Made by a program: the position numbers and the translations under genes. A stretch of 64,000 nucleotides of DNA, taken from assembly GCA_050951545.1 (NCBI GenBank), contig JBMNJG010000002.1, positions 1-64,000 on the forward strand, written 5' to 3'. The notes under the pieces were generated by a model. It had not been told where the DNA came from, ran no database searches, and was given only the letters and a program-made list of their open reading frames with translations. Shown piece after piece: positions 3,422 to 48,295 of the stretch (positions are counted from its first letter, which is position 1; each line of letters opens with the position of its first letter). The DNA is from Limnochordia bacterium (GTDB lineage Bacteria; Bacillota; Limnochordia; DTU080).

Positions 3422-3443
3422 CACATGCACCGTGAGACCAGAG

Positions 3444-19114: not shown

Positions 19115-19212
19115 AGGCCTCCCCGTAGCGATATTGGGCGCCCAGGTTGGATGCACCCAGGCACCCTACGACACTACGGCACTCGAGCAGTTTTCACCTG
19201 CGATCTCTGCTG

Positions 19213-26412: not shown

Positions 26413-29400
26413 ATGCGACCACCTAACCGTCTTCTGTGTAGTCTGATGTGTGTTTTCCTGGCACCCACACTGGCCATGGCCGCCGATACTATGCTCACAG
26501 CTACTCTCCGTCCCACACCATCAGCCTTGGAGACCAATGCCCAACAGAGCTTGGCAATTCCATTCTACCAGGCCATACCCTTTGCAGCTGGCACGTTGCA
26601 GCCAAGTGAGATCCATAGCCTACAAACCCTGGCAGGGTTGACCGTTCCGGCCCAGGTAACCACCGCCGCACGGTGGCCTGACGGCAGTGTACGCTGGCTG
26701 GCCATTGACGGCGTATGGCCCTCTGAGCTGCCTCTTTCACAAGCCGTAGAGGTACAAGTGAGCGAGGAGCCCCATGATAGTGCGGCTGCGCTGCCCCAAG
26801 CAGTCATCCATACCCTCAGTGTCGAGGGAGATGAGGTCCATCTGCTTAGCAAAAGCAGGGAAACGGTGGTTGTACTCACTCCACAGGCCGCCTATATGAC
26901 CATCTCAGAGCCGAAGCAGATTCTCCCCGACTCCATCCCAGACACTGAGCGCCAATATGCCTGGGCGGAGCCCTTGGACGCGCTCAATCCACAAGGTAAG
27001 AGCACACCCCTCGACCTGCGCATTCGCGACTGCGCCATCGAAACCGAAAACGATCTCTTTACCACGTACCGCCTGCGAGGCAATGGCGGCGATCAAAGCC
27101 CCGGTGCAGAGTTGGAGTGGCAGCTACGAGTGCGCATCTACCATGTGACACCCGTAGTTCGTCTTCAGATGAGTTGGTCTTTGCACTGGGACCCCGAATC
27201 CTTCGCCCTTACCTCCGCTCGGTGGCTTGCCAAATCGGCAGCCCCTCTGAGCCAGGTATACATTCCAGAAGTAGACCCACCTCTCGACGCTACGCAAGCT
27301 ACTGTACAGATCTGCGTGGAGCCCTCCGGGCATAGCAAGCTCGTCTATCAAGGAACGGACATCGATGCCCGCGATTGGCCCGAGCCGGAATGGCATAGCC
27401 TTACAGCTCGTACAGGTGACACGTATCTGGGACTGGGCACGGTGAACTTGACCCGTCTAGGACCCAACCACATTGCGTTGCATGATGACACCATTGAGCT
27501 CGCTTCATGGAGTGCAGACCTGGGTTACGGTCTCGACTTGCGTTCGAGCGCTCTCTTGGACGAATTCGGAATGGATCCGGCTGACGGTAGATCCACAGCT
27601 ATCGGCGTCACCCGCACCTTGGAGAGCAGTCTCGTCTGGGCGGCGAGCGCGGCGCAAGCTCAGAGCTTGGCAGACTTAGAGGCCCGACGTGATACGCTTT
27701 GGCTCCCCAACCGGACGGATATCACACGGGCCCAGGCCCTAGGCCCGTGGAACGAAGGCACTTTCTTCTCTAACAGCGCCTTCTTCGAGGGCCTGGATGC
27801 AAACCTGCATTTTCTGCTTGCTTCCCGCGACCATTGGCGCTGGAATGGCTGGGCCAACTTCGGTGACATGCGCACCAACTTCGCCAGTGCCACGCAAGCG
27901 GAACGAGGCCTCCATGTGCAGCGCTGGGCTTTGCACGGCCGCTATGGCTGGCGTAACGGTTCAGCAGCTCCGTGCAATGGTATGTGGTGGGGAGGCCTAG
28001 CTCTCGAAGACCGAGAGTTATGTCTAGCAGCCATTGATTACGCCCTGCACGTCGCAGATACCGATGTCTCTCACCCCTCCTTCTATGGCCCACCGCAACC
28101 CACGGATGGTGGAATGCACCGGAGAAACAAGGACCACTGGAGCGGCTCGGTGCAGATGCAGTACACCCCCAACGACTACCTCTACCTGACTCACTGGCTC
28201 ACAGGACACGAGCGCCTGCGAGAGACCCTCGAGGAAGTGCGTGACTATGCCACGCGGCAAGGAAAAAGCGGTTCTGTCTTCGCTGGGCAGGCCTGGGTAC
28301 ACCGCTATATGGAAACGCACGATCCCGATGACCTGCAAATGGCACGCAGACTCCTCGATGAGAGCACAGGGGCCTGGCAGCAGCGTAGCGGTGGGTCAGA
28401 ACTGACGGGGCTTTCGGCCCTTTACTCAGACAACTTTCGTCTTACGCTGGACGGCATTCCAGTGCTCATCCAGTTCTACGAAGCCACGGGCGATGTAGCT
28501 TATCTGGAGGCCATCCGCGGGAGTATGCAGGCCCAAGGTCTTCCCGACCGGCCTGTCCCCTCTCTGGCGGAGTATCATGGGCTAGCTTATCTACTGCTCA
28601 ACGGCTACACGGAGGAGCAAGTGGGACCTCAACTGGTGGCACAAGCCCGCCAGCATGTCTCTCAAGTGCTCTTTCCTCGGGAAATCCCGCCAAAGGAGCA
28701 GTGGGATTACCCCACGCTGGAGGATGTCGTTCTCCAGCGGTTGCTGCCAGCTAGCCATCCTGGCTATCTCGAGACTCTCGCCATAACCCTTCGAGGCACC
28801 ATGGCTCCCACTGTGATCCATGCCTTCGGATTGGAGCCCAGGGAAATGGCTCTTCACGGACCCAAAACCGTCTATGTGGGCCGCAGTGGCCCGGGCGAAG
28901 CTATACTCTCCATCGAGCGCTTGCATGACCAGGAGGCCCTGTCAGGGTGTCTTGAGATCAAGGACGTGCCGGAAGACTTGCGCCTGGCCTCCCACAGGCT
29001 GGAATACGCAATCGAGCCAGGCACTAAGGAGTTCACGCTTCCGCTAGTGTTAGAAGCCACGCCAGCCCTGGCACCGGGAGCCTATACCCTGAGTGTCATG
29101 GACCCTAAGCGCAGCGAGCTGACAGCGACACTGCCAGTAGTCCTCCCCGGCTGGCGTCTAGTAGATGACTTCCGTCCGCCCATGAAGGACTCGTGGTTTG
29201 GCAGCTTTAGCTTTGAGGTAGCTGAAGGGAAATCAGGGGGCTGGCAGCACGGTACCTCTGATGTCTTTGACGATCCTGACTGGCTGCGACGCATCGAACC
29301 CACGACGGAGTACTTGATCTATGATACACCAGGGCTCTACGACTTCTCTCTGACGTTCTACGCCCCAGCAGCTGCGGTGGAGCAAGTAGCCGATCAGATC

Positions 29401-29607
29401 GCATTCGACTTCGCCACAGATGCAGACACCTGGAAGCCCATCCCCACGGAACTCGCGTGGACAAGACATGGTACGCATGCCAAAGCGGTGATCACTACCC
29501 AAGAGCGGGTCTTCCGCGGAGACGGAAAACTTAGACTCAGCGTCTCAGCTGGTGGAGATGCCGCCTATCCCCAGCTCGGGTATCTGGAGATTAGAGGCTG
29601 GCACTAG
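26413..29607 (+). CDS. Secreted exo-rhamnogalacturonan-lyase-like (PcRGLX/YetA, PL26-like) protein with Ig-like and shared C-terminal domain
   Basis: Signal peptide; PAQVTTAARWPDGSVRWL (RIFT-barrel signature), WNGWANFGD, HVADTD, GMHRRNKDHW. Confidence 0.7.
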   Translation: MRPPNRLLCSLMCVFLAPTLAMAADTMLTATLRPTPSALETNAQQSLAIPFYQAIPFAAGTLQPSEIHSLQTLAGLTVPAQVTTAARWPDGSVRWLAIDGVWPSELPLSQAVEVQVSEEPHDSAAALPQAVIHTLSVEGDEVHLLSKSRETVVVLTPQAAYMTISEPKQILPDSIPDTERQYAWAEPLDALNPQGKSTPLDLRIRDCAIETENDLFTTYRLRGNGGDQSPGAELEWQLRVRIYHVTPVVRLQMSWSLHWDPESFALTSARWLAKSAAPLSQVYIPEVDPPLDATQATVQICVEPSGHSKLVYQGTDIDARDWPEPEWHSLTARTGDTYLGLGTVNLTRLGPNHIALHDDTIELASWSADLGYGLDLRSSALLDEFGMDPADGRSTAIGVTRTLESSLVWAASAAQAQSLADLEARRDTLWLPNRTDITRAQALGPWNEGTFFSNSAFFEGLDANLHFLLASRDHWRWNGWANFGDMRTNFASATQAERGLHVQRWALHGRYGWRNGSAAPCNGMWWGGLALEDRELCLAAIDYALHVADTDVSHPSFYGPPQPTDGGMHRRNKDHWSGSVQMQYTPNDYLYLTHWLTGHERLRETLEEVRDYATRQGKSGSVFAGQAWVHRYMETHDPDDLQMARRLLDESTGAWQQRSGGSELTGLSALYSDNFRLTLDGIPVLIQFYEATGDVAYLEAIRGSMQAQGLPDRPVPSLAEYHGLAYLLLNGYTEEQVGPQLVAQARQHVSQVLFPREIPPKEQWDYPTLEDVVLQRLLPASHPGYLETLAITLRGTMAPTVIHAFGLEPREMALHGPKTVYVGRSGPGEAILSIERLHDQEALSGCLEIKDVPEDLRLASHRLEYAIEPGTKEFTLPLVLEATPALAPGAYTLSVMDPKRSELTATLPVVLPGWRLVDDFRPPMKDSWFGSFSFEVAEGKSGGWQHGTSDVFDDPDWLRRIEPTTEYLIYDTPGLYDFSLTFYAPAAAVEQVADQIAFDFATDADTWKPIPTELAWTRHGTHAKAVITTQERVFRGDGKLRLSVSAGGDAAYPQLGYLEIRGWH

Positions 29608-29613
29608 ACAGAC

Positions 29614-29651
29614 AAAAGGCGGCAGGTTGCCTCGTGGGGCATCCTGCCGCC
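29614..29651 (-). terminator. Terminator between convergent genes
   Basis: AAAA-GGCGGCAGG..TGCC-loop-GGCA..CCTGCCGCC. Confidence 0.7.
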
Positions 29652-29678
29652 TGCTGCTACAGAAAGGTGCAAGCGTTT

Positions 29679-30938
29679 CTACTCAAGCCCGTTCACTATC
29701 TCCATCACTCTATCCACAAGGAAATCCTCAGCCTCCAGACTGTAGGGAAGCGTGTACTGTGAACCAGCCTCATAGCCCTTTTCCGGAATCATATCCGCAG
29801 AAGGCACGTAACCAATCAAAATGCCTGTATACCCAGCGAACATCACCGGGTTGGGCACTAACTGGGCCTTGGTGCGAAGACCAATGCGCACACATACTTC
29901 ACCATTCAGCCCCACCAAGATGAACTCTGGGCCGATACGGACCACAAGAACCTCACATGGTTGGGTCCGCTTATACTCGCCGGCCTCGTCTATCGATGCC
30001 AACATGAGTTGAGCCAGACGCGCCGCACGTCTCTTGCGTCCCTGGAAAAGGGTTTGGTCCTCGTCCGGAAGAAAGTCTTCCATCAAAGGCAGGTGCACGA
30101 CCTCCAGCCCCGAGCGCAGAGGTCCAGTGATCTCTTGCATCGGATGCGCCAATACATTAAGCACCGCGTCAGCTAACTGACGACCAAATGCTCTCGGTCG
30201 AGGCGGCCCTCCCTCGTATTCAAACACCAAGGGGTCATTCGCCTTCACATGATAGGGCTTCAGATCCCCGCCTGCGCCCTGCACAAACAGCGCGGTGGTT
30301 CCCGGTAGCTCTTGTTCGATGAACTGATTGCTGAAACCCACGTAGTCTCCACCGATCAAATACCCACCAATGGTTGAAGGGTGACAGGCATAGTTGGTGA
30401 TCACGGCACTGATTTGCCCCTCAGAGTCCACGGCCTTGACTACCGTAACTTCGTGATCCACTGGCCCGTACGGGTTCACGCCCCAGAGTACCTCTCCGTC
30501 TTTGCTCTTGCGGCGACGATTGACACTGATGGCTGCCCTGCCCTTGCCCACAAATAAGCGTACTGGCTTCGTCTTTGTTAGGCAGGTTTTCACCAGATCA
30601 ACGGTTTTGGCCACTACCTCACCAGCATAGTCGGCATCCCTCGTGCTGGGACCACAGTGCGTGTGTGACACATTGAGAATAAGCTGATCAGCTGCAAGAC
30701 CACATTCGTCTGCCAGCCTCTGACGCATCAACTGAACGTGATCATTGCCCCAACTGCACAGGTCAGCACAAACTAAGGCGACCCTGTGGTCATCGTCCTC
30801 GAGTACCAGCGCCTTCACAAACAAAGACTGGTACACACCCTGCGACATGCCCTTACGAGCTGCAAAACCAGCCATCCGTATTGGTCTGCTTGGAGTGATA
30901 TCCGCGACACCCGTGGCGGCTCTAAGCTCACTTGTCAT
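29679..30938 (-). CDS. Neutral/alkaline ceramidase N-terminal-domain family hydrolase
   Basis: ADITP..MAGFAAR, SHTHCGP, VNRR, GPVD, NYACHPS, QGAGGD, GYVPS..EKGYE. Confidence 0.85.
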   Translation of the reverse strand: MTSELRAATGVADITPSRPIRMAGFAARKGMSQGVYQSLFVKALVLEDDDHRVALVCADLCSWGNDHVQLMRQRLADECGLAADQLILNVSHTHCGPSTRDADYAGEVVAKTVDLVKTCLTKTKPVRLFVGKGRAAISVNRRRKSKDGEVLWGVNPYGPVDHEVTVVKAVDSEGQISAVITNYACHPSTIGGYLIGGDYVGFSNQFIEQELPGTTALFVQGAGGDLKPYHVKANDPLVFEYEGGPPRPRAFGRQLADAVLNVLAHPMQEITGPLRSGLEVVHLPLMEDFLPDEDQTLFQGRKRRAARLAQLMLASIDEAGEYKRTQPCEVLVVRIGPEFILVGLNGEVCVRIGLRTKAQLVPNPVMFAGYTGILIGYVPSADMIPEKGYEAGSQYTLPYSLEAEDFLVDRVMEIVNGLE

Positions 30939-30972
30939 TGCTACACCTCCGTTTCCATAACGCATCGTTCGT

Positions 30973-33900
30973 CTACTGCCAGCCAGTAACCTCCAGACGC
31001 CCTATCTGAGGGAATGCAGGATCTCCACCGGACAACACGCTTATCTTCAGCTGGCCGTCACCGCGAAAATAACGCTTAGTAGGTGTGAGAACACCCTTAG
31101 CCAAGTCGCCCTGTGCAGTCCACGAGCAATGCAACGGTATTTCCTTCCACTCGTCGTTCCCTACGCTGAACTGGATCTGAATTCCATCCGCTGTCTCTTC
31201 TGCCCCAGATACGAGTGTATAGAAGGTGAGTTCAAAATCAAAGAGCCCTGGCACATCATAGACAAGGTACTCTGCGGAAGGCTCGCTACGGCAAAGCCGG
31301 TTAGCGTCCCCGAAAAACTGGTCAGGGTCGGTTATCTCGTAGCGCCAACCCTCCGATTCTTCGGCACGCACCTGGTAGGCTAAGTCGCCAAACCAGCTGT
31401 TCGTCAATGGTGGCCGGAAGTCATCTACGATGCGCCAACCCGGTACCAGGGCGGAAAATGATAAGTCCAGCTCTGGCCGCCCAGGATCGCAGAGAGTCAC
31501 GGGATACGCCCCTGGTGGAAGCTCTTTCGTCGGCGCTATGGCCAGCTCGAGGGGAACTGCTCTCACCCCGGGTTCTAGCGTGTAGGTGATCTCAGCGGGA
31601 GTGACCTGCAACCCGTCAGGAAGGTCTCTGATCTGCAACGTACCCCGCAAAGAACCCGTATCGTCAAGACGAGTAACGCGGAAGCAACCCACTTCAGCCC
31701 CCGCACGCCCGACGCTAACGCTGCTTGGGCCGCTGAGCACAATTTCCCTGGGCTGAGTCAACACGGCGAGGGACTGCGCGGTGTGCCGCAGCGTCTGGGC
31801 CACTGTCTTGCCCAGATTCGAGCCCGCCAGCTGACCCATCTGATGTGGCAGCGTGGCTTCGAAACCCTTGAGAGCTACCTCCCGGAATCTCTCATTGCCA
31901 GTCAACTCATAGGCGTAGGCAAAGGCATCAAGGAGTAGCATATTCGTGTTTCTTGCCTCCGCTGCAAAGTCCGGGTGGTCGATGTACGGATACCCCAAGG
32001 CGGTCTCACACCATAGTTCATCGACCAGGTGTGTGAGGCCCCGGATCAGCATCTCGGCGGCTCTTGCGTCTTGAGTTACCCTATGGTAATCACCCAAGCC
32101 CCGAAGAATGATCGCCGTCATGAAGGGCTTTGTGGCGTTGGGCTGACTTTCAGCCTCATTGGCCGCGATCGTGTAGGTCCACTGACCGTCAGGCTGTTGC
32201 TCCTCAGCAAGGATCTCAACCACTGCCTCGGCTGCCTTCAGATAGTATGGATCGCAGGTACTCTCGTAGGCTGCCACAAGCGCTACCAAGGCCCAGCCTG
32301 CACTTCTGGTACCCACGTCGCGCTGCTGGTTCTGAAAGATCCTAGGGCGGTGGCGATCCGGCTTGACCAAAGCCAAATGGGCGAAAAAGTCACCTACTGC
32401 AAGGGCTGCCTCTAAGCTACGCCGATCACCCGTCAAATGGTAGTAGTCAAGCAGGCCCTGATTCCATGTGTGGTGCTCGCCAGCGTATGATCGGTGAGAG
32501 GCCGAATGGCTATGACCGCATCCGACCCAGACATCATTGTAAGCAGCCCAGACTAAATCGACATCCATCCAGTGCCTGGCAGCGCTTTCGGCAAGGTCGA
32601 AGTAGCGCAAGTCTCCAGAGCGAGCAAACTGCTGGAAATAGACATAAGCCAAGTCATATTCACCGTTACCCCACCCGTCGGGGTCCCAGGTAGTGCTCCA
32701 GTCGCCGAAATTGCGCCATCCATACTCGCCAAGACGATCACGGTTTTGAGCCAGTCTCACATAACCCTGCTCGACAAACGTCTCGTACATAGCGATAGAA
32801 GGATTATACAGCGGCAAGTGCCCGTCCTCAATGAGAAGGAAGGGTCGCCCAAAACCATGGGTGCTCGAATACCATGATGGCGAAGCCACGGCCCGCAAAG
32901 GATGCAGTAGCCCCGCAACAGCCGCAGCCCCCTGATCACTCAGGTCAAGATAGATCTCATGCCGTTTGGCCTCGCCTCCACCCATAATGAGAGGATCAGC
33001 GGATGCTGCCCAAAGCTGGACACGCAGATCGCCATCCTCATTAAGGACGATGCCTTTGGGAAAATGCTCCCAAAAATGGCGCACGCCTGCAGTTAGTGAC
33101 CGGTCTCCCTGGCGAAACTGTGCCCACCCGGGAGCTCGATCGCCCGCGGCTATCTGTCGACCATCCGAGATGATCTCATAGTTGCGTTCAGTAGTCTGCA
33201 GCAAAGCCACAGAAGCCGCCTGACCTGAGGATATCTGCTCCCTAGCAGTGGCTATGTCAAAGATGGCTTGGCTGCCTCTGAGCCAACCAGGGAAAGATAG
33301 CGATACATCGGTGATCTTCGCGTGCGAAACGGCTATCCGCGGCTCCCAACCCATAAGGTGCGTGATGGTGGGGTCTATTCTGACCCGTGTCGCGTTCCGG
33401 TAAAAATGAAAACGCATATCGTAGGCGAAGTTGAGCGTTTCGCCCCCTTCCATCTCGTGAAGCTCTCCTTTGACGAGCACGACAACTCGCTCAGGCCCTA
33501 CCTCTTCCACCATCAGCTGATAAGGGGCGCTCGAGGTGCTGATCACCAGGCCACCCGAGCCCTGCAACACGAGCTTGGGGGACTGAAGCCCCTCCCAGGG
33601 TACCCCGTCCACCTTAAGGCCACGGATCAGCTGGCTTTGCTTCCCGAAGGTCACCTCTAGGCGCCCTGTAGCCACCGTTACCGTATCATGGTCTTCCTCC
33701 ACGACTATACCCGCGTAAGGCGAGGCAGCCACCGTAGAACCATACTCAAGGACGTATTCGGCAGTCTCACCAGCGACCAGATCGGCCTGGAAATCCAGGA
33801 GCAACCAGCGAATACTACCGTCAGGCCAACGCGATAGAACGCTCGCCTGAAGGGGCACTTCCTGTCCATCGCGCAGCAAACGTGCTAAGGCAGGATTCCA

Positions 33901-34791
33901 GAGCTGACCCTCAGCGAGAGGCACGCCTGACGTGACTGGCTGGTTGATGCGAACCAGACCTTGATCTTCTGTGACGCGCAAGCTCACCTGGCGCTTGCCT
34001 GAGGAAGTAGATGGCCACGGAGGCAAACTGGGAGCCGGACGTTTTGGTCGATCACCCGTCCAAGTGGCATTGCGAACCGGGACCAGGTTCGGAGCTTCGT
34101 CATCCATCGCCCACACTCTGAACCCACCGTAGTACACATCCCCCGGCAGATCGTTATGTGTATGTTGGACAGTGAGCCGAGCGTCCTTCCACGTACTGAC
34201 GGGCTGGCGAAACGCCAGAGGACCTGCAACAGGCCTCTCCATATCATTTAGGTAAAGATAAGCTTCGTTCGTCTTACGATTGGCGATAATGCGCAAATGG
34301 TTCCAGCCATCCTTGAGGACCCCACAAGAGACGCCATAGCTAGAATCGCCCTTCGAGGCGCGAAACCCCAGTTGCCCCGTATCGGTGACGTACCAATTGA
34401 GGTTGGGCCCCGATTGGGAGACGTAGAGATTGACGCCCTTCCCCGCTACCCATCGCAGTTGATGCTCAACGGCGATGGTGACAGCTGCCGCAGACAAGGC
34501 CTGATCGAGAGGAGCTGTCATCCGAGTCTCCCTGCGATTCGGATCAGCCACAATGTGGACCGCCCTGCCTGAATCCAGCCCCGCATCACAAACTACCTCA
34601 ACAGACCCGGGCTCGCCCTCGACAAACCATCCCGCCGGAGTGCCTCCAATCTCGCTGGAGGAGAAGTCATCGGCGAAAAGCACAGGCGACTGCATTGCCC
34701 AAGAGGCATGGACCATAACTGCTAGCAGCGCTAGCACGCTGAGAAACAAAACACACGTCCTTCTGAATGCCTGAGCGGTGCGCGTAGTCAC
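30973..34791 (-). CDS. Secreted PcRGLX/YetA (PL26)-like lyase with N-terminal beta-sandwich, Ig-like and shared C-terminal domain
   Basis: Signal peptide; PVTSGVPL..VPLQASVLSRWPDGSIRWLLLDFQAD, HFWEHFPK, GWRNFGD, WGNGEYD, RHWMDVD. Confidence 0.75.
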   Translation of the reverse strand: MTTRTAQAFRRTCVLFLSVLALLAVMVHASWAMQSPVLFADDFSSSEIGGTPAGWFVEGEPGSVEVVCDAGLDSGRAVHIVADPNRRETRMTAPLDQALSAAAVTIAVEHQLRWVAGKGVNLYVSQSGPNLNWYVTDTGQLGFRASKGDSSYGVSCGVLKDGWNHLRIIANRKTNEAYLYLNDMERPVAGPLAFRQPVSTWKDARLTVQHTHNDLPGDVYYGGFRVWAMDDEAPNLVPVRNATWTGDRPKRPAPSLPPWPSTSSGKRQVSLRVTEDQGLVRINQPVTSGVPLAEGQLWNPALARLLRDGQEVPLQASVLSRWPDGSIRWLLLDFQADLVAGETAEYVLEYGSTVAASPYAGIVVEEDHDTVTVATGRLEVTFGKQSQLIRGLKVDGVPWEGLQSPKLVLQGSGGLVISTSSAPYQLMVEEVGPERVVVLVKGELHEMEGGETLNFAYDMRFHFYRNATRVRIDPTITHLMGWEPRIAVSHAKITDVSLSFPGWLRGSQAIFDIATAREQISSGQAASVALLQTTERNYEIISDGRQIAAGDRAPGWAQFRQGDRSLTAGVRHFWEHFPKGIVLNEDGDLRVQLWAASADPLIMGGGEAKRHEIYLDLSDQGAAAVAGLLHPLRAVASPSWYSSTHGFGRPFLLIEDGHLPLYNPSIAMYETFVEQGYVRLAQNRDRLGEYGWRNFGDWSTTWDPDGWGNGEYDLAYVYFQQFARSGDLRYFDLAESAARHWMDVDLVWAAYNDVWVGCGHSHSASHRSYAGEHHTWNQGLLDYYHLTGDRRSLEAALAVGDFFAHLALVKPDRHRPRIFQNQQRDVGTRSAGWALVALVAAYESTCDPYYLKAAEAVVEILAEEQQPDGQWTYTIAANEAESQPNATKPFMTAIILRGLGDYHRVTQDARAAEMLIRGLTHLVDELWCETALGYPYIDHPDFAAEARNTNMLLLDAFAYAYELTGNERFREVALKGFEATLPHQMGQLAGSNLGKTVAQTLRHTAQSLAVLTQPREIVLSGPSSVSVGRAGAEVGCFRVTRLDDTGSLRGTLQIRDLPDGLQVTPAEITYTLEPGVRAVPLELAIAPTKELPPGAYPVTLCDPGRPELDLSFSALVPGWRIVDDFRPPLTNSWFGDLAYQVRAEESEGWRYEITDPDQFFGDANRLCRSEPSAEYLVYDVPGLFDFELTFYTLVSGAEETADGIQIQFSVGNDEWKEIPLHCSWTAQGDLAKGVLTPTKRYFRGDGQLKISVLSGGDPAFPQIGRLEVTGWQ

Positions 34792-34809
34792 GGGAAAACA
34801 CTCCTAAGA

Positions 34810-34836
34810 ACCGCCCGGCTGTGTATGCCGGGCGGT
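34810..34836. other. GC-rich intercistronic stem-loop downstream of SBP
   Basis: ACCGCCCGGC-TGTGTAT-GCCGGGCGGT, perfect 10-bp stem with a weak U tail; may stabilise the SBP mRNA. Confidence 0.6.
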
Positions 34837-34858
34837 CCCCTTTATGTCGATCTCGTTC

Positions 34859-36121: not shown

Positions 36122-36216
36122 TTCATTTGCCTCCGCATTTAATGTTGTGCGACATAAACACAACTCTTTTCAACGCCTCCGGGTGTTGGCCTGCTTTATT
36201 TCTGTTTTCGGGGATC

Positions 36217-39138
36217 CTATTTGGTAATGGAGGCAAGCTCAAACCCAGTAAAGACTACCCCGCCAATTTGAACTGCCTCTTTGGGGAGAGCGTCAGACAA
36301 CGTCAGACGAAACCAGTGCTGGTCGGTTGCCTCGCTGAGATCAAGGGTGATCATCGCCCGCTGCCAGTCATCTGCATCGCCGTCTAGCTTTGCGGTGTAG
36401 GCTATGGGCTTCCACGCCTCTGGCGAGACAGCCACGGCCAGCTCAAGCCCTTCTTCTAAGCGGATCTCTGGACGGACGAACAGCGTTAAGGTAACCGTCT
36501 GTAACCGTGGTGTTTCCCAGACAAGATGCTCGGCAGTGTCTGTCCCCCGCAGCAAGCGATGTGGATCCCGGAAAAAGCGATCACTATCGCTGGTGTCGTA
36601 AACCCAGCCTTCAGAGCGGCTCGCGGTCTGCAGAAAGTCAATCGGAAACCATCCCTCCGTGACTGGTGGCGCCATGTTTTGCACAAGGGTCCAGCGATTG
36701 GCAACGTTGATGTCCAGCGTCTGACGGAACGCGCCGTAGGTATCATGCACTGTGGTCACAGTCAGCAAGCGATGTCCGTCGTCCAATCTCTCCGTATCGA
36801 TAAGTAGTTCATCAGGGCCCGGTAGTCTGGCCCCACGGTAGATATTCTCGCCATCTACATCAATGGTCACACTAACCAGATCCTCGGCGTGATGCGCATG
36901 CAACAGCTCGATGTTCAGCGGCAGGGTGCCAGTCACCCGACTACCATTCTCAAGCGACAGGAATCTCACCCTCACCGCCGGATAGTCAGGAAGGCTTTCG
37001 TAAAGGGCATCGTAGTAACCGCTGCGATGAGCCTGCTTGAGCAATTCCTCGGGCCACGTACCGTACCACGAGTAGTTGAGCTGTCGTTCAAGCTCAATTT
37101 CCGAGAAGTCGTAGCGCACAATGCCGTCTCGGCCAGCGAAAATGGCCCGGTCTGTGCCGATCTCATAAAAGAGCGCCCAACGGCCGTCTTCGAGGCGAAC
37201 TTTCTCTAACCACTCGAAGCCACTCAAGACGGCTCGCTTGACCTCCACGGATGGGTCTGGAATCGAATGCAGTAGTCTCAGAATGCCAGTCGATGAAGAG
37301 ATTGCAGTGGCGACGGGTTCGAATGATCGGGATGCCCGCGGCTCGTAGGTATCGGGATCATGGCGATGGCCCCAGCCTGTTAGGCGACCGTCAACCTCAA
37401 TCTGTGCCTTGACAATGTAGTCAATCCCTCTATCAAACGCCTGCGCGAGACGGGCCCTATACGCATCATCGACGAACTCAAATGGATGTCTCTCCAAGAC
37501 AACATCCTGGATAAGCGACATGACGCTGACCATCGCATCGGTATAAAACGTTACATGCCTGCTATAGGAGGTATAGCTTTCGGGGTCAGGATAGACATGC
37601 GGCCAGCCGCCCGAGGGGTACTGAGAGGCGAGGATGAAATCCAAGCTACGATAGAAAGCCTCTAGGAAACGTCGCTCGCCAGTAGCTGCATAAAGCCTGC
37701 CCAAGAAGCGGATCGGAGCAATCGTGCGCCCGCGGTTGAAGTCTGCGCGCTCGATCCCATCCCTGCATGACGGGGTCCGCGTCGGGTATTCCGGTGAGAA
37801 CGGAAAGTGAGCCATGCCCATGACCCAGCCCCATCCGCCAGTGGATGTCTGCCATGAGAGTAGATTGTCGCCGATGCGCTTCGCTTCTTCAGTTGTCCAC
37901 CAGGCTGGACTCTGGCCAGCATAGTCGGAGTACATGAAGCGCTTGGTGTGTTCTTTCGGCGGTATACGGCCAAGTGCTTCTTCGACTGCCGCCAGGTCAA
38001 TAGAAGCGACTATTCCTGTGTGAAACGGAGGTTCTTGCTCAAGAACAGCCTGTAGCAGCACCGGGATAGCAGTCCACGTGGACTTGGCGAAGAAGTCGTC
38101 ATGTAGGTCTCGATTCTTGTACCTGGGGTAGACCGTCGGCCAGCCACCACTGGGGAACTGCGCTTCAAGAAGAGTGTTCAAACCCTTGCTAAAGGCCTCT
38201 CGGTACTTTACCTCGCCAGTGATCGCATACATATGAGCCAACACACTGAGCTGTGTGGCCAGTATGCCATCCGGTACAGTTAACGTACCGATAAGGATGT
38301 CAATGGTGATCTCATCGGACTCCATTCTGCGCACAATGCGCTCTGCAAGAAACCGGGCCTCGTCTGTTTCCCACCATTCAGGGGGCCGCTGCGCGACATC
38401 GTTGTACTCGATCCAGATCGGAGTCGCCGCTTGCTCGGCCCTTTGGCGCGATTCCTCCTCAGAATTGGGCCCAAGGGTCCACACCTTGACATCCCCATAG
38501 AAGAACTCGCCCTTAATGTTTCGGTGTTGGGCGAGGATGAGCTCGGCACCAGCCCACGAGTCAACGGGTCTGCCAAAGGTCAATGGTTCACTAATCGGCA
38601 CTTGCATATCATTGAGATAAAAGACGACTTCCTGTCTTTCAATATCAGCCACAAGACGAATGCGGTTCCAGCCTTCTTGGAGTTTGCCAAGCCTGAGCGC
38701 ACTTTGCTTTGTGCCAACCCCTCGGTTGAAATACAAGTGGTCAGCAGCGACCCACCAATGCAGCCGGTGACTGCGCGCCTTGCTGATGTACATGTTGTTC
38801 TTTTCCTGTGAAGACCGAATGCGATGCTCGATCACGATGGTCTTGGCTTGTTCTGCTGGTGGATCCCACAAAGGAGCACTGATAGAGGTGTTTTCCAGGT
38901 TCGGATCAGATGTGATGCGGACTGCTCGCCCCGTATCCAGCTCAGCATCAGGGACGACACAAACGTATCCATCTCCTGCGTCAACCCTCCATCCCGCTAG
39001 TGGGTCTCCAAACTGATCCTCCGCAAAACTATCTGCGAACAGGAACTGCGCAGAATCCGCAAATGCACTATGGCCCAGCACACTGACTAACACGACAGCC
39101 AGGATGGTCGAGAAAACAGCCTTGTGAGTACCTGGCAT
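36217..39138 (-). CDS. Secreted pectate-lyase-like (PL10/PelA) multidomain protein with shared C-terminal domain
   Basis: EAKRIGDNLLSWQ..GGW, FLGRLYAATG..AF..LDFILASQYPSGGWP, AFDRGIDYIVKAQI, HDPDTYEPRASRSFE, WALFYEIGTDRAIFAGRDG, YSWYGTWP. Confidence 0.8.
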   Translation of the reverse strand: MPGTHKAVFSTILAVVLVSVLGHSAFADSAQFLFADSFAEDQFGDPLAGWRVDAGDGYVCVVPDAELDTGRAVRITSDPNLENTSISAPLWDPPAEQAKTIVIEHRIRSSQEKNNMYISKARSHRLHWWVAADHLYFNRGVGTKQSALRLGKLQEGWNRIRLVADIERQEVVFYLNDMQVPISEPLTFGRPVDSWAGAELILAQHRNIKGEFFYGDVKVWTLGPNSEEESRQRAEQAATPIWIEYNDVAQRPPEWWETDEARFLAERIVRRMESDEITIDILIGTLTVPDGILATQLSVLAHMYAITGEVKYREAFSKGLNTLLEAQFPSGGWPTVYPRYKNRDLHDDFFAKSTWTAIPVLLQAVLEQEPPFHTGIVASIDLAAVEEALGRIPPKEHTKRFMYSDYAGQSPAWWTTEEAKRIGDNLLSWQTSTGGWGWVMGMAHFPFSPEYPTRTPSCRDGIERADFNRGRTIAPIRFLGRLYAATGERRFLEAFYRSLDFILASQYPSGGWPHVYPDPESYTSYSRHVTFYTDAMVSVMSLIQDVVLERHPFEFVDDAYRARLAQAFDRGIDYIVKAQIEVDGRLTGWGHRHDPDTYEPRASRSFEPVATAISSSTGILRLLHSIPDPSVEVKRAVLSGFEWLEKVRLEDGRWALFYEIGTDRAIFAGRDGIVRYDFSEIELERQLNYSWYGTWPEELLKQAHRSGYYDALYESLPDYPAVRVRFLSLENGSRVTGTLPLNIELLHAHHAEDLVSVTIDVDGENIYRGARLPGPDELLIDTERLDDGHRLLTVTTVHDTYGAFRQTLDINVANRWTLVQNMAPPVTEGWFPIDFLQTASRSEGWVYDTSDSDRFFRDPHRLLRGTDTAEHLVWETPRLQTVTLTLFVRPEIRLEEGLELAVAVSPEAWKPIAYTAKLDGDADDWQRAMITLDLSEATDQHWFRLTLSDALPKEAVQIGGVVFTGFELASITK

Positions 39139-39199
39139 GGTTACACTCCCCTTCTGGTGTTGAGTGTTAAGACTGCGTACACGACACTGAAGCATTGGT

Positions 39200-39658
39200 C
39201 TACTCACCATCTTTGTAATGGTAGCCAGCCATCACGAGCCCACCAATCTGAACTGCGTCTTCGGGAAGAGCATCACCCAGCTCAAGCCCTTCTTCTAAGT
39301 CCAGAAGGCTTTCGTACAGCGCATCGAAGCGACTGTCGCGATAGGCCTGCTTAAGCAACTGCTCTGGCCACGTACCATACCAGGCGTAGCCGAGCTGCCG
39401 CTCAAGCTCCGAAACCGGGACATCAATATAGACTTTGCCCGTCTGCATACCGCGGATGATCCGTTCCCCAAGAGCCCTGGCTTCATCGGTGCCCCACCAC
39501 TCCAAAGGCTGGCTGACAACCTGCCCGTACTCCATCCACATGGTGGAGGTAGCCCCGAGGGCCGCCTGAGTACTAGCGGTCGCCATCGAGCAGACCAGTA
39601 TCCATAGCAGTATCAAGTGGAGCGAGGCCTTCGAAACCCGTTTCGCAGATCTCATCAT
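39200..39658 (-). CDS. Small secreted protein; internally deleted in-frame miniature of the adjacent PL10 gene
   Basis: Signal peptide plus four segments colinear with 36217-39138, including a 23-nt exact match (39277-39299 = 36438-36460). May be a pseudogene. Confidence 0.7.
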   Translation of the reverse strand: MMRSAKRVSKASLHLILLWILVCSMATASTQAALGATSTMWMEYGQVVSQPLEWWGTDEARALGERIIRGMQTGKVYIDVPVSELERQLGYAWYGTWPEQLLKQAYRDSRFDALYESLLDLEEGLELGDALPEDAVQIGGLVMAGYHYKDGE

Positions 39659-39814
39659 TACAACGCCCTCTTCCTAGACTGAAGAAATCGCAGCATCCCC
39701 TAAGGACTCAGACCTGTCCTGAGGCTTTACAAAGCACTACGCGCAACAATTCCCGCCAGTAGAGTTTCGTTCGTTTTGCATATTCCCTACTCCTGCCCAT
39801 TGCATAGTTGGATA

Positions 39815-39984
39815 GCGCCAGTACTGTATGATGCAGCGCCAGCTTGCTTTCCCGTCCGGCAGCGCATCTGTGACAAGTGGGGAAACCTGTGACCATTGCT
39901 CTACCCTGGCATTCGTGGCGTACTATCTGTGGAAAAAGGAGACACGGATGCATGTGTCATTTCGGCATCTGCATGGGCGCGTGC
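39815..39984 (+). repeat. Diverged ~170-bp copy of 45394-45564 (terminator, leader and first codons of the PrcB-like gene)
   Basis: Shared TTGCTTTCCCGTCCGGCAGCGCAT and CTGTGACCATTGCTCTACCCTG blocks; MHVSFRHLHGRV vs MHLSSRHLYGRV. Confidence 0.85.
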
Positions 39985-40023
39985 GGAGCGCCGACGAGCT
40001 GCCCATCGCCAAGTCGCGGCTGC

Positions 40024-40052
40024 TTGACTCTTCATCGCAATGATGGTACTAT
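40024..40052 (+). promoter_or_regulatory. Sigma-A promoter of the DEAD-box helicase
   Basis: TTGACT-17bp-TACTAT with TGn extension. Confidence 0.65.
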
Positions 40053-40325
40053 GCTAGAAGATGGCTAATACTTGTGGCCACGCGGACTCGCTCCGGTGGC
40101 CTTTCGCATTTGTGCCGTCTCTCACCCCTTGCGACATTTGGGTCCCCTCGGCTAGCACCGAAACCGAAATAGTACTCTTGGGGGCATCAACCCCTATCCA
40201 GCACAGGCGGTGGGAGCATTATTGCCCCAGCCAGGAGAGCTATGCCTCACCGTTGCTCTGACGGATCCTACTCAAGCATTGGGAAATACGAGTCACCCGG
40301 CGATGGCCGGAGAAGGACGGGTTTA

Positions 40326-41933
40326 ATGGAACATAATGGTCTAACGTTGTTCACTCAGCTAGCTATTAACGATCAGCTCCTGCGAGCTATTGACGATCTG
40401 GGTTTTGAGGAACCTTCTCCAATCCAGACACAGGCGATTCCGCCTGCATTGCGGGGCGAGGACCTCATAGGTCAGGCTCAGACGGGCACAGGCAAGACTG
40501 CCGCGTTCGCGATCCCCATCCTCCAGAATCTGTCGCCCGCGATGCGTAACCGACGTGGTCCGCTTGCACTCGTCGTAACTCCTACAAGGGAGTTGGCCAT
40601 TCAGGTCACAGAAGAGTTCCGCCGTCTTGCCCGGCATACGTCTTGCCAGGCCTTACCCATCTACGGTGGTCAACCGATCGGCCGTCAGATCAAGGGCCTG
40701 CGGCAGGGCGTCGATGTGGTTATCGGTACACCAGGAAGACTGCTTGACCACCTGTCCAGACGCACACTAACACTTCACAGCGTGAACACGGTGGTGCTCG
40801 ACGAAGCAGACGAAATGATGGCCATGGGGTTCATCGACGATATCGAGAGCATCTTGAAGATGACTCCCCCACAGCGCCAGACCCTCTTGTTCTCGGCGAC
40901 GATGCCCCCAGCGATCGCGCGCTTGGCGGTCAAGTACATGCGCAATCCGGTGCGCATCACAATCCAGCCTGAACACGTGGTGGCCCCCGACATTGAGCAG
41001 ATCTACTACGAGGTGCCGCCCCATGCCCGCTTTGAAGCACTCTATCGCATCATCGACAGCGAGGCTATTCAGCGGGCGATCATCTTCTGTCGCACAAAGC
41101 GAGGCGCCGACGAGCTAGCGGACCGGTTACGCGATCGTGGATACTTGGCCGATGCCCTCCATGGCGATCTGGAGCAGCGCCAACGCGACCGGGTGATGTA
41201 CGCTTTCCGTAACGGCGATATCGACCTATTGGTTGCCACGGACGTTGCGGCCCGCGGGCTAGACGTAGAGAACGTCACGCATGTGATCAACTACGATATC
41301 CCCACGGACCCCGAATCGTACGTCCATCGCATTGGCCGGACTGGCCGGGCTGGCCGATCGGGCATTGCTATGACTCTAATTCACCCCAAAGAACGTCGCA
41401 CACTATCGCTGATTGAGCGTCTGACTGGTGTTCGCATCAAGCGCCGCATCGTCCCTACCCCAGCGATTGTGGCAGAGCGGCAGCGAGAGATATGGCGTGA
41501 GCGCCTGGTCAAGACCCTCGACAGGGACAACTTGGCCACCTATCGGGGGATCATTGAGGAACTGCTTGACGAGTATGACTCTGTGGATGTTGGAGCTGCG
41601 GCCTTCAAGCTTCTTTTGGACGGCGCGAATGGGCAGACTCGCTCGGATCCAATGGGTCCGGCTACGGAATTCGGCAACACTGGTTCCGAGAGAGGAATGA
41701 CGCGTTTTTTCATCAACATCGGACGCAAAGAAGGAGTCACTCCTGCCAGTATCGTCCGTGGTGTCTCAGAGCAAGCCAGCATCTCAGGCGCAGTGATAGG
41801 CAAGATAGACATCCATGAGAGCTTCGCCTTTTTCGAGGTGCCTTTGGACTTGGCGTCCAGTGTCGCAGGGGCCATGCGACAGGGCGAGATTAAGGGCCGT
41901 GCGATTAACATCGAGCCAGCGCGCGTTCGGTAG
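40326..41933 (+). CDS. cshA: DEAD-box RNA helicase with DbpA-type RNA-binding C-terminus (CshA/DeaD)
   Basis: Q motif GFEEPSPIQ, AQTGTGKT, PTRELA, LDEADEM, SAT, TDVAARGLD, HRIGRTGRAG, RFFINIGR..IGKIDI. Confidence 0.93.
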   Translation: MEHNGLTLFTQLAINDQLLRAIDDLGFEEPSPIQTQAIPPALRGEDLIGQAQTGTGKTAAFAIPILQNLSPAMRNRRGPLALVVTPTRELAIQVTEEFRRLARHTSCQALPIYGGQPIGRQIKGLRQGVDVVIGTPGRLLDHLSRRTLTLHSVNTVVLDEADEMMAMGFIDDIESILKMTPPQRQTLLFSATMPPAIARLAVKYMRNPVRITIQPEHVVAPDIEQIYYEVPPHARFEALYRIIDSEAIQRAIIFCRTKRGADELADRLRDRGYLADALHGDLEQRQRDRVMYAFRNGDIDLLVATDVAARGLDVENVTHVINYDIPTDPESYVHRIGRTGRAGRSGIAMTLIHPKERRTLSLIERLTGVRIKRRIVPTPAIVAERQREIWRERLVKTLDRDNLATYRGIIEELLDEYDSVDVGAAAFKLLLDGANGQTRSDPMGPATEFGNTGSERGMTRFFINIGRKEGVTPASIVRGVSEQASISGAVIGKIDIHESFAFFEVPLDLASSVAGAMRQGEIKGRAINIEPARVR

Positions 41934-42127
41934 GCTCCCCCAACCCTATCGTGGGCGACTGCGCCGCCCACACCCAAGCGATGGGCGTGGGCGGCCGACG
42001 GTGCTCGCTGGGTTGATAAGATGATCACGGCCTTTGCAGTGCCTGTTGACGCCCTTTCCATACATGCAGCCAGGATAAGGGCTCTTTCAGACGAACCACA
42101 TAGGGCTCACAGGATTCCTGGTTTGGA

Positions 42128-45100
42128 GTGATGAAGCCCATGCGATTGTTTAGGACCCTCGTCAAATTGATGTCACTTAGCCTAACGGTCTCGTTGATCT
42201 GTCTTGCTTGTGTACAGATGGCAGTGGCCGACGCAGCATTCACAGCTTACCTCCGGCCCACTCCATCTGTTCTCAACACGAATAACGAGCATCACCTGAA
42301 GATCCCTTTCTACCAGGCTATTCCCTGCGCTGAGGGCGCACTGCAACCAAGTGCAGCCCGCAGTCTCAGGAGCGCAGAGGGAGTGCCCGTTCCGGCTCAG
42401 GTATCAACTGCCGCGCTATGGCCCGACGGCAGTGTTCGCTGGCTGGCCATCGACGGTGTATGGCCCTCTGAGTTACCTCTTTCAGAAGCTGTCAGGGTGC
42501 AAGTGAGCGACCTGCCCTACACTCCGGCTACCTTCTTGCCCGAGGCGGTTATTCACGCGGTCAGCGTCGACGATGATGAGATTCGCTTGCTTGACCAAAG
42601 CGAGCACACCGTAGCGGTACTTACCCCACAGGCTTCATACATCACGATATCGGAGCCAAAGCAGATCCTTCCCGACTCTCTTCCGGACGATGAGCGTCAG
42701 TACGCCTGGGCAGAGCCCTTGACCTCTCTCAATCCGACAGGCAAGAGCATTCCCCTCAACCTACGTATTCGTGACTGCATCATCGAAGCTGACAATGATC
42801 TCTTCACCGTATACCGTGTCCGAGGCAATGGCGGCGATCAGAATCCCGAGGCAGGACTGGAATGGCAGCTGCGAGTGCGCATCTACCACGTGGTACCTGT
42901 AGTGCGCCTGCAGATGAGTTGGTCATTGCACTGGGACCCCCAAAGCTACGCTCTAACCTCGGCCCAGTGGTCTGCCCGCTTCGTCGCCCCCTTCAATGAA
43001 GTGCACATTTCGGGTGTCAACTCGACCCTGGATGCCTCTCAGGGTAGTGTGCAGCTAGCCGCCGAACCACCTGGCCAGAGCCGACTCACCTATCAAGAGG
43101 CTGAGGTGGCCGAGCGCGATCTACCTGAGCCAGAGTGGCACAGCCTGGCTGCTCGGACAGGCGACAGGTATCTAGGCGTTGGCACTGTACACGCGACGCG
43201 GCTAGGTCCTAACCATGTTGCCGTGCATGATCGTACTATTGAACTGGCTTCGTGGAGCGCAGACCTAGGCTACGGTTTGGATCTGCGTTCAACAGCCTTA
43301 CCAGATGAGTTTGGCCTGGACGCGGTTGACGGAAGAGCCCTCGCCATCGGCGTCACGCGCACCATGGAAAGCAGCCTGGTTTGGGCCTCTAGCGCTGAAC
43401 AAGCTCAGAACCTCGCGGCTCTGGAGGCGAAGCGCGATAACCTGTGGCTCCCCAACAGCACCGATGTCACAGAAAGCCAGGTCTTTGGCCCCTGGAATGA
43501 TGGTACCTTCTTCTCCAACGACGCCTTCTTTGAGGGTTTGAGAGCTAATCTGCACTTTCTCGTGGACTCACGTGATCATTGGCGCTGGAATGGCTGGGCC
43601 AACTTTGGCGATATGCGTACCAACTTCTCCAGCTCTACGCAGACGGATCGAGGCCTATACGCAGAACGTTGGTCCCTGCACGGTCGCTATGGCTGGCGCC
43701 ACGGCTCTGCCGAGCCCTACTACGGTCTGTGGTTGAGTGGCCTAGCCCTGGATGATCGCGCCCTGTGTCTGGCCGCCATCGACTACGCCTTGCACGTCGC
43801 CGACGTAGACGTCTCGCATGCCTCGTTTTTCGATTCGTCTCTGCCTACGGATGGCGGGATGCACCGCAGAAACAAAGATCACTGGAGCGGTTCAGTGCAG
43901 ATGCAGTACACGCCCAGCAGCGGCCTCTACCTGACCCAGTGGCTCACGGGTCACGAACGCCTTCACGAGACTCTGGAGGAGGTGCGCGGCTATGCCACAC
44001 GCCAAGGACGCAGTGGCTCCGCTTTTGCTGCGCAAGCGTGGATAAACCGCTACATGGAGACCAACGACCCCGAAGACCTTCGTCAGGCCCGTGCCCTGTT
44101 GGTGGAGAGTGCCAACGTCTGGGCACGCAACAATCCGAAACCAGAGTTGCGTGACCTGGCGACGCTATACGTGGAAAACTTCAGGCGCACTCTGGACGGT
44201 ATTCCAGTGCTGATTCAGTTTCATGAAGCTACACAAGACCCGGCATATCTCGATGTCATCCTGGAGATGATCCGGGCGCATGGGCTTCCAGACAGTCGCG
44301 ATCCGGCTCTAGCCGAATACCACGGACTCGCTTATCTGCTGCTCAACGGCTTCACCGAAGAGCGCATTGGAGTGAGTCTGGTTAGGCAAGCTCGCCTGCA
44401 CGTGGCCCAGTTACTTTATCCGCAGCGCATTCCGCCTAAGGATCAGTGGAGCTACTTGAACCTGAAGGATTTCGTTCTTACTGGCCTGCAGCCAATCAGC
44501 AGCCCCAGCTACCGAGAGACGGCGGCGATAGGCTGGCGCGCCATCATGGCTCCTGTGGTGTTGCACGCCCTCGGCGTGGAACCCAAAGAGATGACCTTGG
44601 CCGGGCCGAAGACGCTCTACGTAGGACGTGGCGGCCCAACAGAGACCACCCTATCGATCACGCGCCTGCACGATCAAGAGGAGATGCAGGGATATCTCGA
44701 AACCAGGAACCTACCTGAGGGATTGCGCATCTCTCCACATGAGCTCTTCTATCACATCGAACCTGGCAGCAAGCAGATCTCCCTTCCGATAGTGCTGGAG
44801 GCAGCGTCAAGCGTGGCTCCGGAGGCCTATCGTATCTCTTTTGTCGATCCCGAGCGTAGCGAGCTGACGCTAGCTTTCCCAGTGGTAGTGCCGGGCTGGC
44901 GTGTCGTCGATGATTTCCGCCCACCCACGAAAGACTCGTGGTTCGGGAGCTTCAGTTTTGACGTATGCGAAGAGAAGTCAGAAGGCTGGCAGCACGACAC
45001 CACAGATCCCGACGGTGAGCTCTTTGATGACCTGGACCGTCTCTGCCGCGTCGAGCCTACCGCTGAGTATCTGATATACGGTACACCAGGCCTCTACGAT

Positions 45101-45364
45101 TTCACCCTAACGTTCTACGCCCCTGTGGCTACGATGGAGCAAGTGGCCAGTCAGATCGCGTTCGCAGTGACCACAGATGGAGACACTTGGCAGCCCATTC
45201 CAACCCTAATCACGTGGACGGTACAAGGTGAGTATGCCAACGGAACCCTCAGGCCCCAAGAACCAATGTTCCGCGGAGACGGAAAACTCAGGCTGAGCGT
45301 ATCCGCAGGTGGAGATGCCGCCTTTCCGCAGTTGGGGCATCTGGAGATCAGAGGCTGGCAATAG
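42128..45364 (+). CDS. Secreted PcRGLX/YetA (PL26)-like protein, full-length paralog of 26413-29607
   Basis: Colinear with 26413 throughout (WPDGSVRWLAIDGVWPSELPLS, RDHWRWNGWANFGDMRTNF, GGMHRRNKDHWSGSVQMQYTP). Start may be 42131 or 42140. Confidence 0.72.
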   Translation: MMKPMRLFRTLVKLMSLSLTVSLICLACVQMAVADAAFTAYLRPTPSVLNTNNEHHLKIPFYQAIPCAEGALQPSAARSLRSAEGVPVPAQVSTAALWPDGSVRWLAIDGVWPSELPLSEAVRVQVSDLPYTPATFLPEAVIHAVSVDDDEIRLLDQSEHTVAVLTPQASYITISEPKQILPDSLPDDERQYAWAEPLTSLNPTGKSIPLNLRIRDCIIEADNDLFTVYRVRGNGGDQNPEAGLEWQLRVRIYHVVPVVRLQMSWSLHWDPQSYALTSAQWSARFVAPFNEVHISGVNSTLDASQGSVQLAAEPPGQSRLTYQEAEVAERDLPEPEWHSLAARTGDRYLGVGTVHATRLGPNHVAVHDRTIELASWSADLGYGLDLRSTALPDEFGLDAVDGRALAIGVTRTMESSLVWASSAEQAQNLAALEAKRDNLWLPNSTDVTESQVFGPWNDGTFFSNDAFFEGLRANLHFLVDSRDHWRWNGWANFGDMRTNFSSSTQTDRGLYAERWSLHGRYGWRHGSAEPYYGLWLSGLALDDRALCLAAIDYALHVADVDVSHASFFDSSLPTDGGMHRRNKDHWSGSVQMQYTPSSGLYLTQWLTGHERLHETLEEVRGYATRQGRSGSAFAAQAWINRYMETNDPEDLRQARALLVESANVWARNNPKPELRDLATLYVENFRRTLDGIPVLIQFHEATQDPAYLDVILEMIRAHGLPDSRDPALAEYHGLAYLLLNGFTEERIGVSLVRQARLHVAQLLYPQRIPPKDQWSYLNLKDFVLTGLQPISSPSYRETAAIGWRAIMAPVVLHALGVEPKEMTLAGPKTLYVGRGGPTETTLSITRLHDQEEMQGYLETRNLPEGLRISPHELFYHIEPGSKQISLPIVLEAASSVAPEAYRISFVDPERSELTLAFPVVVPGWRVVDDFRPPTKDSWFGSFSFDVCEEKSEGWQHDTTDPDGELFDDLDRLCRVEPTAEYLIYGTPGLYDFTLTFYAPVATMEQVASQIAFAVTTDGDTWQPIPTLITWTVQGEYANGTLRPQEPMFRGDGKLRLSVSAGGDAAFPQLGHLEIRGWQ

Positions 45365-48084: not shown

Positions 48085-48194
48085 GCCGTTCTTGATTTTC
48101 CACTACTTCGTATCTACAGGGCCGATGCGCTATCTCATGCGCACCGGCCCTTCGCTGTGACAGGATAGCCGTTGTAGCGCATCGTATCCATTTC

Positions 48195-48223
48195 TTGACA
48201 CGCTAATCATGCAGGCGTATGAT
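48195..48223 (+). promoter_or_regulatory. Sigma-A promoter of SBP 48296
   Basis: TTGACA-17bp-TATGAT, overlapped by a TAATCAT..ATGATTA inverted repeat. Confidence 0.8.
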
Positions 48224-48295
48224 TAAATTGTTTCAATCGCAATCATGTCACGAAGTCTGTTACGATACTATCTCGAAAAAGAAGGGTGATTGAAC

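Follow-up and report, generated by a model that had tools for sequence, protein, structure and literature searches.

A single terminal jelly-roll domain with a conserved hydrophobic insert on exported enzymes of a probable Limnochordia bacterium, and its possible role in envelope docking

The stretch of DNA analysed here (the window) comprises 64,000 nucleotides, positions 1 to 64,000 of contig JBMNJG010000002.1, from a host that probably belongs to the Limnochordia. Four large proteins with signal peptides encoded in it end in one shared tail domain, which is preceded by an immunoglobulin (Ig)-like spacer. Proteins are named by their lower coordinate and all features lie on the strand of their protein. 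Three are PcRGLX-like: 26413 (26413..29607, + strand, 1064 residues; type 2 spacer, 28825..29139; terminal jelly-roll domain, 29152..29607), 30973 (30973..34791, − strand, 1272 residues, also GH127-like; type 2 spacer, 31450..31761; domain, 30973..31437) and 42128 (42128..45364, + strand, 1078 residues; type 2 spacer, 44573..44884; domain, 44897..45364). The fourth, 36217, is a PL10 pectate lyase (36217..39210, − strand, 997 residues; type 1, Big_7-like spacer, 36709..37017; domain, 36217..36693). Each domain contains a short insert, a predicted hairpin, with the motif PP...WFG in 26413 (29176..29208), 30973 (31381..31413) and 42128 (44921..44953) and PP...WF in 36217 (36640..36669). A sequence-only reading of the window had delimited the four domains and placed an Ig-like spacer before each. 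Both observations were borne out: the four ranges translate in frame, each from the tryptophan given as its start to the stop codon, and a spacer lies upstream in all four proteins. The same reading had called the four proteins secreted lyases, which is clear for 36217 (a strong PL10 match of 273 bits); for the other three a lyase activity is suggested by weak PcRGLX-like domain matches, and 30973 additionally matches a GH127 catalytic domain. Proteins 42128 and 26413 share 68% identity. The tail domains are pairwise 48–71% identical among the three PcRGLX-like proteins and 26–28% identical to that of the PL10 protein, which matched the three other window tails in BLASTP with E values of 2e-9 to 4e-14. 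The N-termini of 30973 and 36217 have in common an unannotated domain of ~220 residues (37% identity), followed by different catalytic domains. Beside the PL10 gene lies a 152-residue remnant (39200..39658, − strand), which combines a signal peptide with three segments similar to 36217, the final ~35 residues of the tail domain among them; it looks like an in-frame product of multiple deletions.

The domain was searched as an iterated hidden Markov model (HMM) against the 37,584 six-frame open reading frames (ORFs) of the genome of the window's host (G000). At E<1e-5, 34 ORFs matched, of which 28 carry the full domain and the remaining six represent fragments of genes that are broken or cut. 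All 28 contain one domain each, of about 155 residues, ending 0–6 residues before the stop codon. A signal-peptide-like N-terminus was recognized by eye in 25 of them (18 by a heuristic); three ORFs are truncated at their 5' side. Among the cargo are PL10, PcRGLX-like, heparinase II/III-like, beta-helix and GH16 proteins. When the ~100 residues ahead of the domain were themselves made into an HMM, it matched 33 ORFs, every one an intact or broken carrier, and therefore the Ig spacer and the tail travel together; by alignment, the spacers of the 28 carriers are of two types (20 and 8). Spacer and tail form a detachable cassette of ~265 residues that is selective among exported proteins. An untagged paralog at C7:155740 is 42–47% identical over its last 200 residues to three carriers and stops where the cassette begins. 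Thirteen of the 40 largest exported-looking ORFs that lack the tag resemble heparinase II/III or alginate lyase; these 40 were taken from 283 untagged candidates other than solute-binding proteins (SBPs), and include one false call (AddB) and two that run off contig ends. The tails of PcRGLX-like enzymes fall into two separate regions of the domain tree. Two unrelated, untagged lyase-like proteins (L068 and L050, at C2:215823 and C6:83530) share a different C-terminal domain of ~200 residues (51% identical, with no Pfam match). Contig C6 ends within a PcRGLX-like ORF (G000:C6:209620-212575), and contig C10 starts (C10:3-935) in a C-terminal fragment of the matching type with the cassette, so these contigs may adjoin.

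The sequence-only reading recognized no named domain in the tail, and searches of Pfam, NCBIfam and the PDB sequences likewise gave no credible match. For the 28 members, Pfam and NCBIfam returned nothing convincing (best E values of 0.002 and 0.069), and the PDB sequence search returned 0 matches at E<=10. PF00754 (F5_F8_type_C/CBM32, CBM denoting a carbohydrate-binding module) was matched by one of the 28 at E 0.06, under its gathering score. In the ESM Atlas, unnamed clusters were found at 0.89–0.94 and a CBM32 lead at 0.85–0.86; the recognition score of the first query was below threshold. The tail of 36217 was modelled with AlphaFold2 at a predicted local-distance difference test score (pLDDT) of 95. 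The model is all-beta except for one short helix, and structure searches place this predicted fold among the galactose-binding-like jelly rolls. Its neighbours include reelin (Z 10.3, root-mean-square deviation 3.8, 134 residues aligned), a gingipain adhesin (Z 10.2, r.m.s.d. 3.3, 137 residues aligned) and several CBMs at Z 8–9, among them a CBM32 at Z 8.3. Many families, including CBM61, CBM27, CBM6, CBM35 and CBM32, are nearly tied at Z 8–10.6 with no standout relative. The best neighbours (CBM6, CBM35, CBM61, CBM27, reelin subrepeats and the gingipain cleaved adhesin) superpose at Z 9–10.6 with r.m.s.d. values of 2.5–4 Å over ~115–137 residues, but are 6–17% identical to the tail and none stands above the rest. 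With the discoidin or F5/F8 type C domains (CBM32 and the C2 domains of factors V and VIII) the tail has in common the jelly-roll superfold, the CBM32 match and the SxDGxxW motif, which is family-wide. The earlier suggestion of a CBM-like sandwich therefore holds for the fold and the motif; no named CBM family matches. The shared fold by itself shows no function. It nevertheless raises a competing explanation, namely that the tail is a new carbohydrate-binding module, with the hairpin aromatics in its sugar site, that tethers the enzymes to a glycan of the host envelope (lipopolysaccharide or a wall polymer) or to a shared substrate. We regard this as a strong rival of the reading favoured below, though less likely than it on the evidence of the insert and cargo.

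A profile search of 1.84 billion representative sequences gave 545 matches at E<=0.001. Among the best 150 of the 545, 139 proteins are single-copy and 11 are multi-copy, and 137 of these 139 end within 12 residues of the terminus. Twenty loci chosen around matches in four further genomes hold 26 domains, all 26 of them terminal and single. The strict C-terminal placement that had been predicted for a tag was thus found in both the genome and the library searches: one terminal copy each, on proteins that have signal peptides, are unrelated to one another and belong to a diderm lineage. Internal copies, which had been named in advance as evidence against a sorting role, occur solely in a separate, hairpin-less branch of Paenibacillus-type proteins. 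These are clear homologues (domain E values down to 1e-19) with the core motifs and predicted fold in common, but they have 2–7 scored copies per protein, in internal or terminal arrays. Most of them belong to PL8, GH10, GH123 or GH30/59; SLH domains occur in two, and four of the ten looked up are named Paenibacillus.

The two branches were compared in an alignment of 161 terminal domains (133 complete-domain representatives and 28 from G000, some of them near-duplicates) and 37 repeats. The terminal form has an insert of 9–14 residues (11 in 111 of the 161), at which 35 of the 37 repeats have no residue at all. Within the insert Pro is conserved at 96%, Phe at 90% and Gly at 95%; the Trp position is occupied by Trp (71%), Phe (14%), Leu (4%) or Ile (3%), and Tyr makes up 0.5% of insert residues. 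Sugar-stacking sites typically exchange Trp and Tyr, and the pattern seen in the aligned inserts is, unlike theirs, one of hydrophobic substitution. In the model of 36217 the insert is predicted to be a two-strand hairpin, its short strands lying around the Gly-Trp turn at which Trp-Phe lies. A hairpin-less repeat was also modelled (pLDDT 97.6, from an alignment that included 17 terminal domains) and gave the same core and the same spread of neighbours (CBM61 at Z 10.6, r.m.s.d. 3.2, 123 residues aligned). Because this relative keeps the core fold, the insert residues are not needed for the core. A tree built without the insert columns separated the terminal form from the repeats at a Shimodaira–Hasegawa-like approximate likelihood-ratio test (SH-aLRT) value of 99; it covered 63 terminal domains (28 from G000 and 35 chosen at random) and the 37 repeats, came from a quick search and is unrooted, and so gives no direction of descent. 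The two branches may show a CBM-like repeat becoming an anchoring tag through one short insertion.

These comparisons cut both ways for the carbohydrate-binding explanation. In its favour, both branches conserve Asp, Arg, Arg, Tyr, Trp and Gln, and the sister branch, in tandem on PL8, GH10, GH123 and GH30/59 proteins of which two are SLH-anchored, has a CBM-like habit. However, the hairpin tip takes Phe, Leu or Ile and hardly ever Tyr, and a Tyr (54%), a His (54%), an Asn (78%) and a Trp/Tyr (83%) before a Pro (86%) that are conserved in the repeats are variable in the terminal form. A precedent is CBM37 of Ruminococcus albus, a shorter, fibronectin type III (FN3)-like module. According to excerpts of PMC4081043, CBM37 is likewise lineage-restricted, present in tens of copies per genome, usually terminal on glycoside hydrolases, polysaccharide lyases and carbohydrate esterases, and anchors enzymes to the cell wall; it differs in its monoderm host, its demonstrated glycan binding and its frequent tandem (13, 11 and 18 cases in three strains) and occasional internal occurrence, whereas the hairpin form is never tandem or internal.

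Outside the host genome the domain was detected in 13 of 89 genomes of the class, with 1–37 matches each, in the host's order, in one other family and in one single-copy case. Two of 400 other genomes of the phylum matched (with up to nine candidates scored per genome). The first match is a hairpin-less copy in a 2081-residue enzyme; the second (L097, G366:C194, from another class) lies on a 2-kb contig with 91% DNA identity to G000:C7 that is probably misbinned or recently transferred. A word-indexed sequence search yielded 11 close relatives, and of ten homologue clusters looked up, two bore the label Limnochordia and one the label Firmicutes/Bacillota. By their N-terminal parts, 105 carriers fell into 50 clusters, from which 48 representatives and P0140 were scanned, leaving out two PcRGLX-like ones; 38 of these 49 had a Pfam match. 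The cargo comprises lyases (PL6, PL9-like, PL10, heparinase II/III-like and alginate lyase), hydrolases and esterases (GH13, GH16, GH43, GH115, GH123, pectinesterase and GDSL esterase) and also sulfatase, M60 peptidases, metallophosphoesterase, amidohydrolase and an SBP. The last (P0097; L092:10060-12468, genome G009) is a sugar SBP to which a pair of Ig spacers and the tail domain are fused. Several carriers have CBM4_9 or F5/8 modules of their own. The lack of a common substrate counts against substrate targeting by a carbohydrate-binding tail, not against binding of a self-glycan. Since the cargo is too diverse for one substrate and many carriers bring their own binding modules, the simplest common target would be the cell itself.

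We therefore favour, at a probability of about 0.45, the reading that the tail is an envelope-docking anchor acting through its hydrophobic hairpin. What has been observed is the cassette with its terminal position and modular nature, the predicted fold, and an insert that is conserved. In the mechanism proposed, the lineage would have added a short hydrophobic beta-hairpin, tipped by Trp-Phe-Gly, to a CBM-type jelly roll, and the cassette would be added to the end of Sec-exported enzymes. After export the hairpin, presumed to be exposed, would dock into one common target in the envelope, either a membrane leaflet or the hydrophobic pocket of an envelope protein, and the Ig spacer would serve as a stalk keeping the catalytic head clear of the docking surface; docking would keep the enzymes beside the sugar-uptake machinery. 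Membrane or protein-pocket docking is favoured because the hairpin distinguishes the terminal form and accepts Phe, Leu or Ile but almost never Tyr. The envelope face bound may be the periplasmic or the outer one, and the SBP-cassette fusion P0097 is as compatible with an anchor facing the periplasm as with one at the surface. An analogy is offered by discoidin C2 domains, which in excerpts of PMC11098723 bind membranes by aromatic-tipped loops bearing W26/W27; the predicted Trp-Phe turn of the tail would be analogous at most to their spike 1. The domain, itself uncatalogued, would work like known C-terminal anchoring modules, yet it fails membership of CBM32, of the C-terminal domain (CTD) of type IX secretion (T9SS) and of the dockerins.

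Several points weigh against an envelope-docking anchor. No linked partner was found in the part of the gene neighbourhoods covered or by barrel profiling, and the hairpin could pack back on the sandwich. By sequence count the tail is acidic (median net charge −10) with 0.2 Lys/Arg per insert. It thus lacks the basic loop residues of domains that bind anionic lipids, for example factor V C2 with its basic contacts; K23 is named in the excerpts of PMC11098723. The C2 domains of factors V and VIII were not among the structural matches listed, so the parallel is one of analogy. Most cargo is still carbohydrate-active and the fold neighbours include many CBMs. The apparent loss of sugar-binding residues is read from a comparison with repeats that themselves have no demonstrated ligand, and the set of 161 domains includes some near-duplicates of G000 proteins. 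Literature searches turned up no paper that addresses the means by which diderm Firmicutes such as the Limnochordia hold on to or present their large exported enzymes, nor any description of the tail domain; supplements and subscription journals lay outside the coverage of these searches. The cassette marks a defined exported subset, with natural tagged and untagged paralogs and a three-residue motif, which makes the question of retention directly testable.

The nature of the envelope bears on a further explanation. Excerpts of PMC11456536 describe the Limnochordia as diderm, and the gene content of the host indicates a diderm cell, as the sequence-only reading had supposed: the genes of G000 include those for BamA, for an SLH-stalk-barrel protein interpreted as OmpM and for a single secretin, which sits in a PilT-containing pilus cluster identified by eye. 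Omp85 and secretin matches were found in five of five carrier genomes tested. In G013 a cassette gene (L077, G013:C41) lies directly downstream of a BamA-Skp-LpxD-LptF/G cluster, an arrangement not seen in G000. G000 also encodes a 7179-residue TpsA-like ORF adjoining an Omp85-family gene (C7:355190-378249) and a C45 peptidase-TPR-Omp85 fusion (L121, C13:48805-51741). In such a cell the tail could instead be an export signal for an outer-membrane pathway, with a FadL/PorV-like barrel or the pilus secretin moving or displaying tagged cargo while untagged paralogs remain periplasmic. The model would be the T9SS CTD, an Ig-like domain of ~70–80 residues, with its receptors PorV and PorP. There too a signal peptide, an Ig spacer and a terminal domain are found on diverse diderm cargo; the tail is strictly terminal, ends at its last strand and is carried by a subset of large exported proteins, and the host has the outer membrane and the secretin that such export would use. 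In excerpts of PMC9143113 the T9SS receptors are FadL-family barrels, and PorV and PorP bind CTD cargo. Ten of 13 carrier genomes and four of 76 non-carriers have a full-length match (E<1e-60) to a FadL/PorV-like barrel of the host (C11:228161), figures to be read with a profile built partly from the same genomes, hence partly circular, and with related genomes that are not independent. This barrel scores 22 bits against PorV_fam, for which the cut-off is 90; it was not found in G006 (12 domain copies), is interrupted by stops in G002 (33 copies) and is a weak match in G076.

Other components of a T9SS-like route fared less well. No NCBIfam model of a type A, B or C CTD matched any of the 28 members at E<=1, and the tail, a jelly roll, is about twice as long as a CTD. 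SprA similarity amounts to one motif of ~50 residues, far below cut-off and not found in the f2, f3 and f5 carriers; the SprA/Sov model TIGR04189 exceeded its cut-off in 0 of 31 genomes, a search of unproven sensitivity since the control panel gave 0 of 14. The single secretin belongs to a pilus cluster, and 26 domain-hit neighbourhoods in four genomes contain SBPs and carbohydrate-active enzymes, with no recurring machinery gene in the part displayed. Three further sets of candidate partners were set aside: the SprA-motif barrel C16:10975, full-length solely in the host's family; the barrel C11:216756, not found in G009, G011, G013 and G018; and a CsgG-domain protein together with two separate porin-like barrels, none found full-length in five test genomes (single-sequence queries with no positive control). 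Given partial barrel co-occurrence, an SprA-like motif not found in carriers beyond the host's family and other barrels whose distribution did not follow that of the carriers, export is a minority reading, and we think it improbable. Just as doubtful is the notion that diderm Firmicutes possess a so far undescribed outer-membrane display or export pathway for which the hairpin-tipped domain, evolved out of a CBM-like module, serves as recognition tag, with a FadL/PorV-like barrel or the pilus secretin as its receiver and by convergence on the T9SS CTD. Of the tag proposed in the sequence-only reading, the placement stands as predicted; its sorting or export role has no positive support in a co-occurring translocon, and anchoring or docking fits better. 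As an observation independent of the tail domain, proteins of 830–1690 residues with a short SprA-like motif were found (L138 at G019:C1:606255-609455, G021:C112, L139 and L067). In G019 and G021, FadL/PorV-like genes lie no more than ~2 kb from them, and 19 PorV-like matches occur in G030; T9SS-related barrel pairs are a possibility in diderm Firmicutes.

The least probable of the explanations weighed is that the tail assembles enzymes into a complex, by self-association through the hairpin or by dockerin-like docking on a scaffold protein. A single terminal copy on many cooperating carbohydrate-active enzymes, with a conserved and predictedly protruding hydrophobic element, would suit such assembly. 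No dockerin family appeared among the Pfam matches of the 28 members, however, the alignment shows no visible dockerin-like duplicated motif, and no scaffold candidate was seen by Pfam among the 40 largest untagged exported ORFs (no dedicated repeat search was made).

Sugar SBPs are encoded in the window at 1933-4787, 17033-20484, 24985, 34859, 46789-49594 and 57697. About 220 ORFs of G000 match their profile, and a lipobox is present in eight of the 171 with a called signal peptide. PF00528 has 16 permease matches in G000, four of them in sugar-type pairs (C11:255343-263455), and there is one MsmX-like ATPase, so that the ratio of SBPs to permeases in this genome is extreme.

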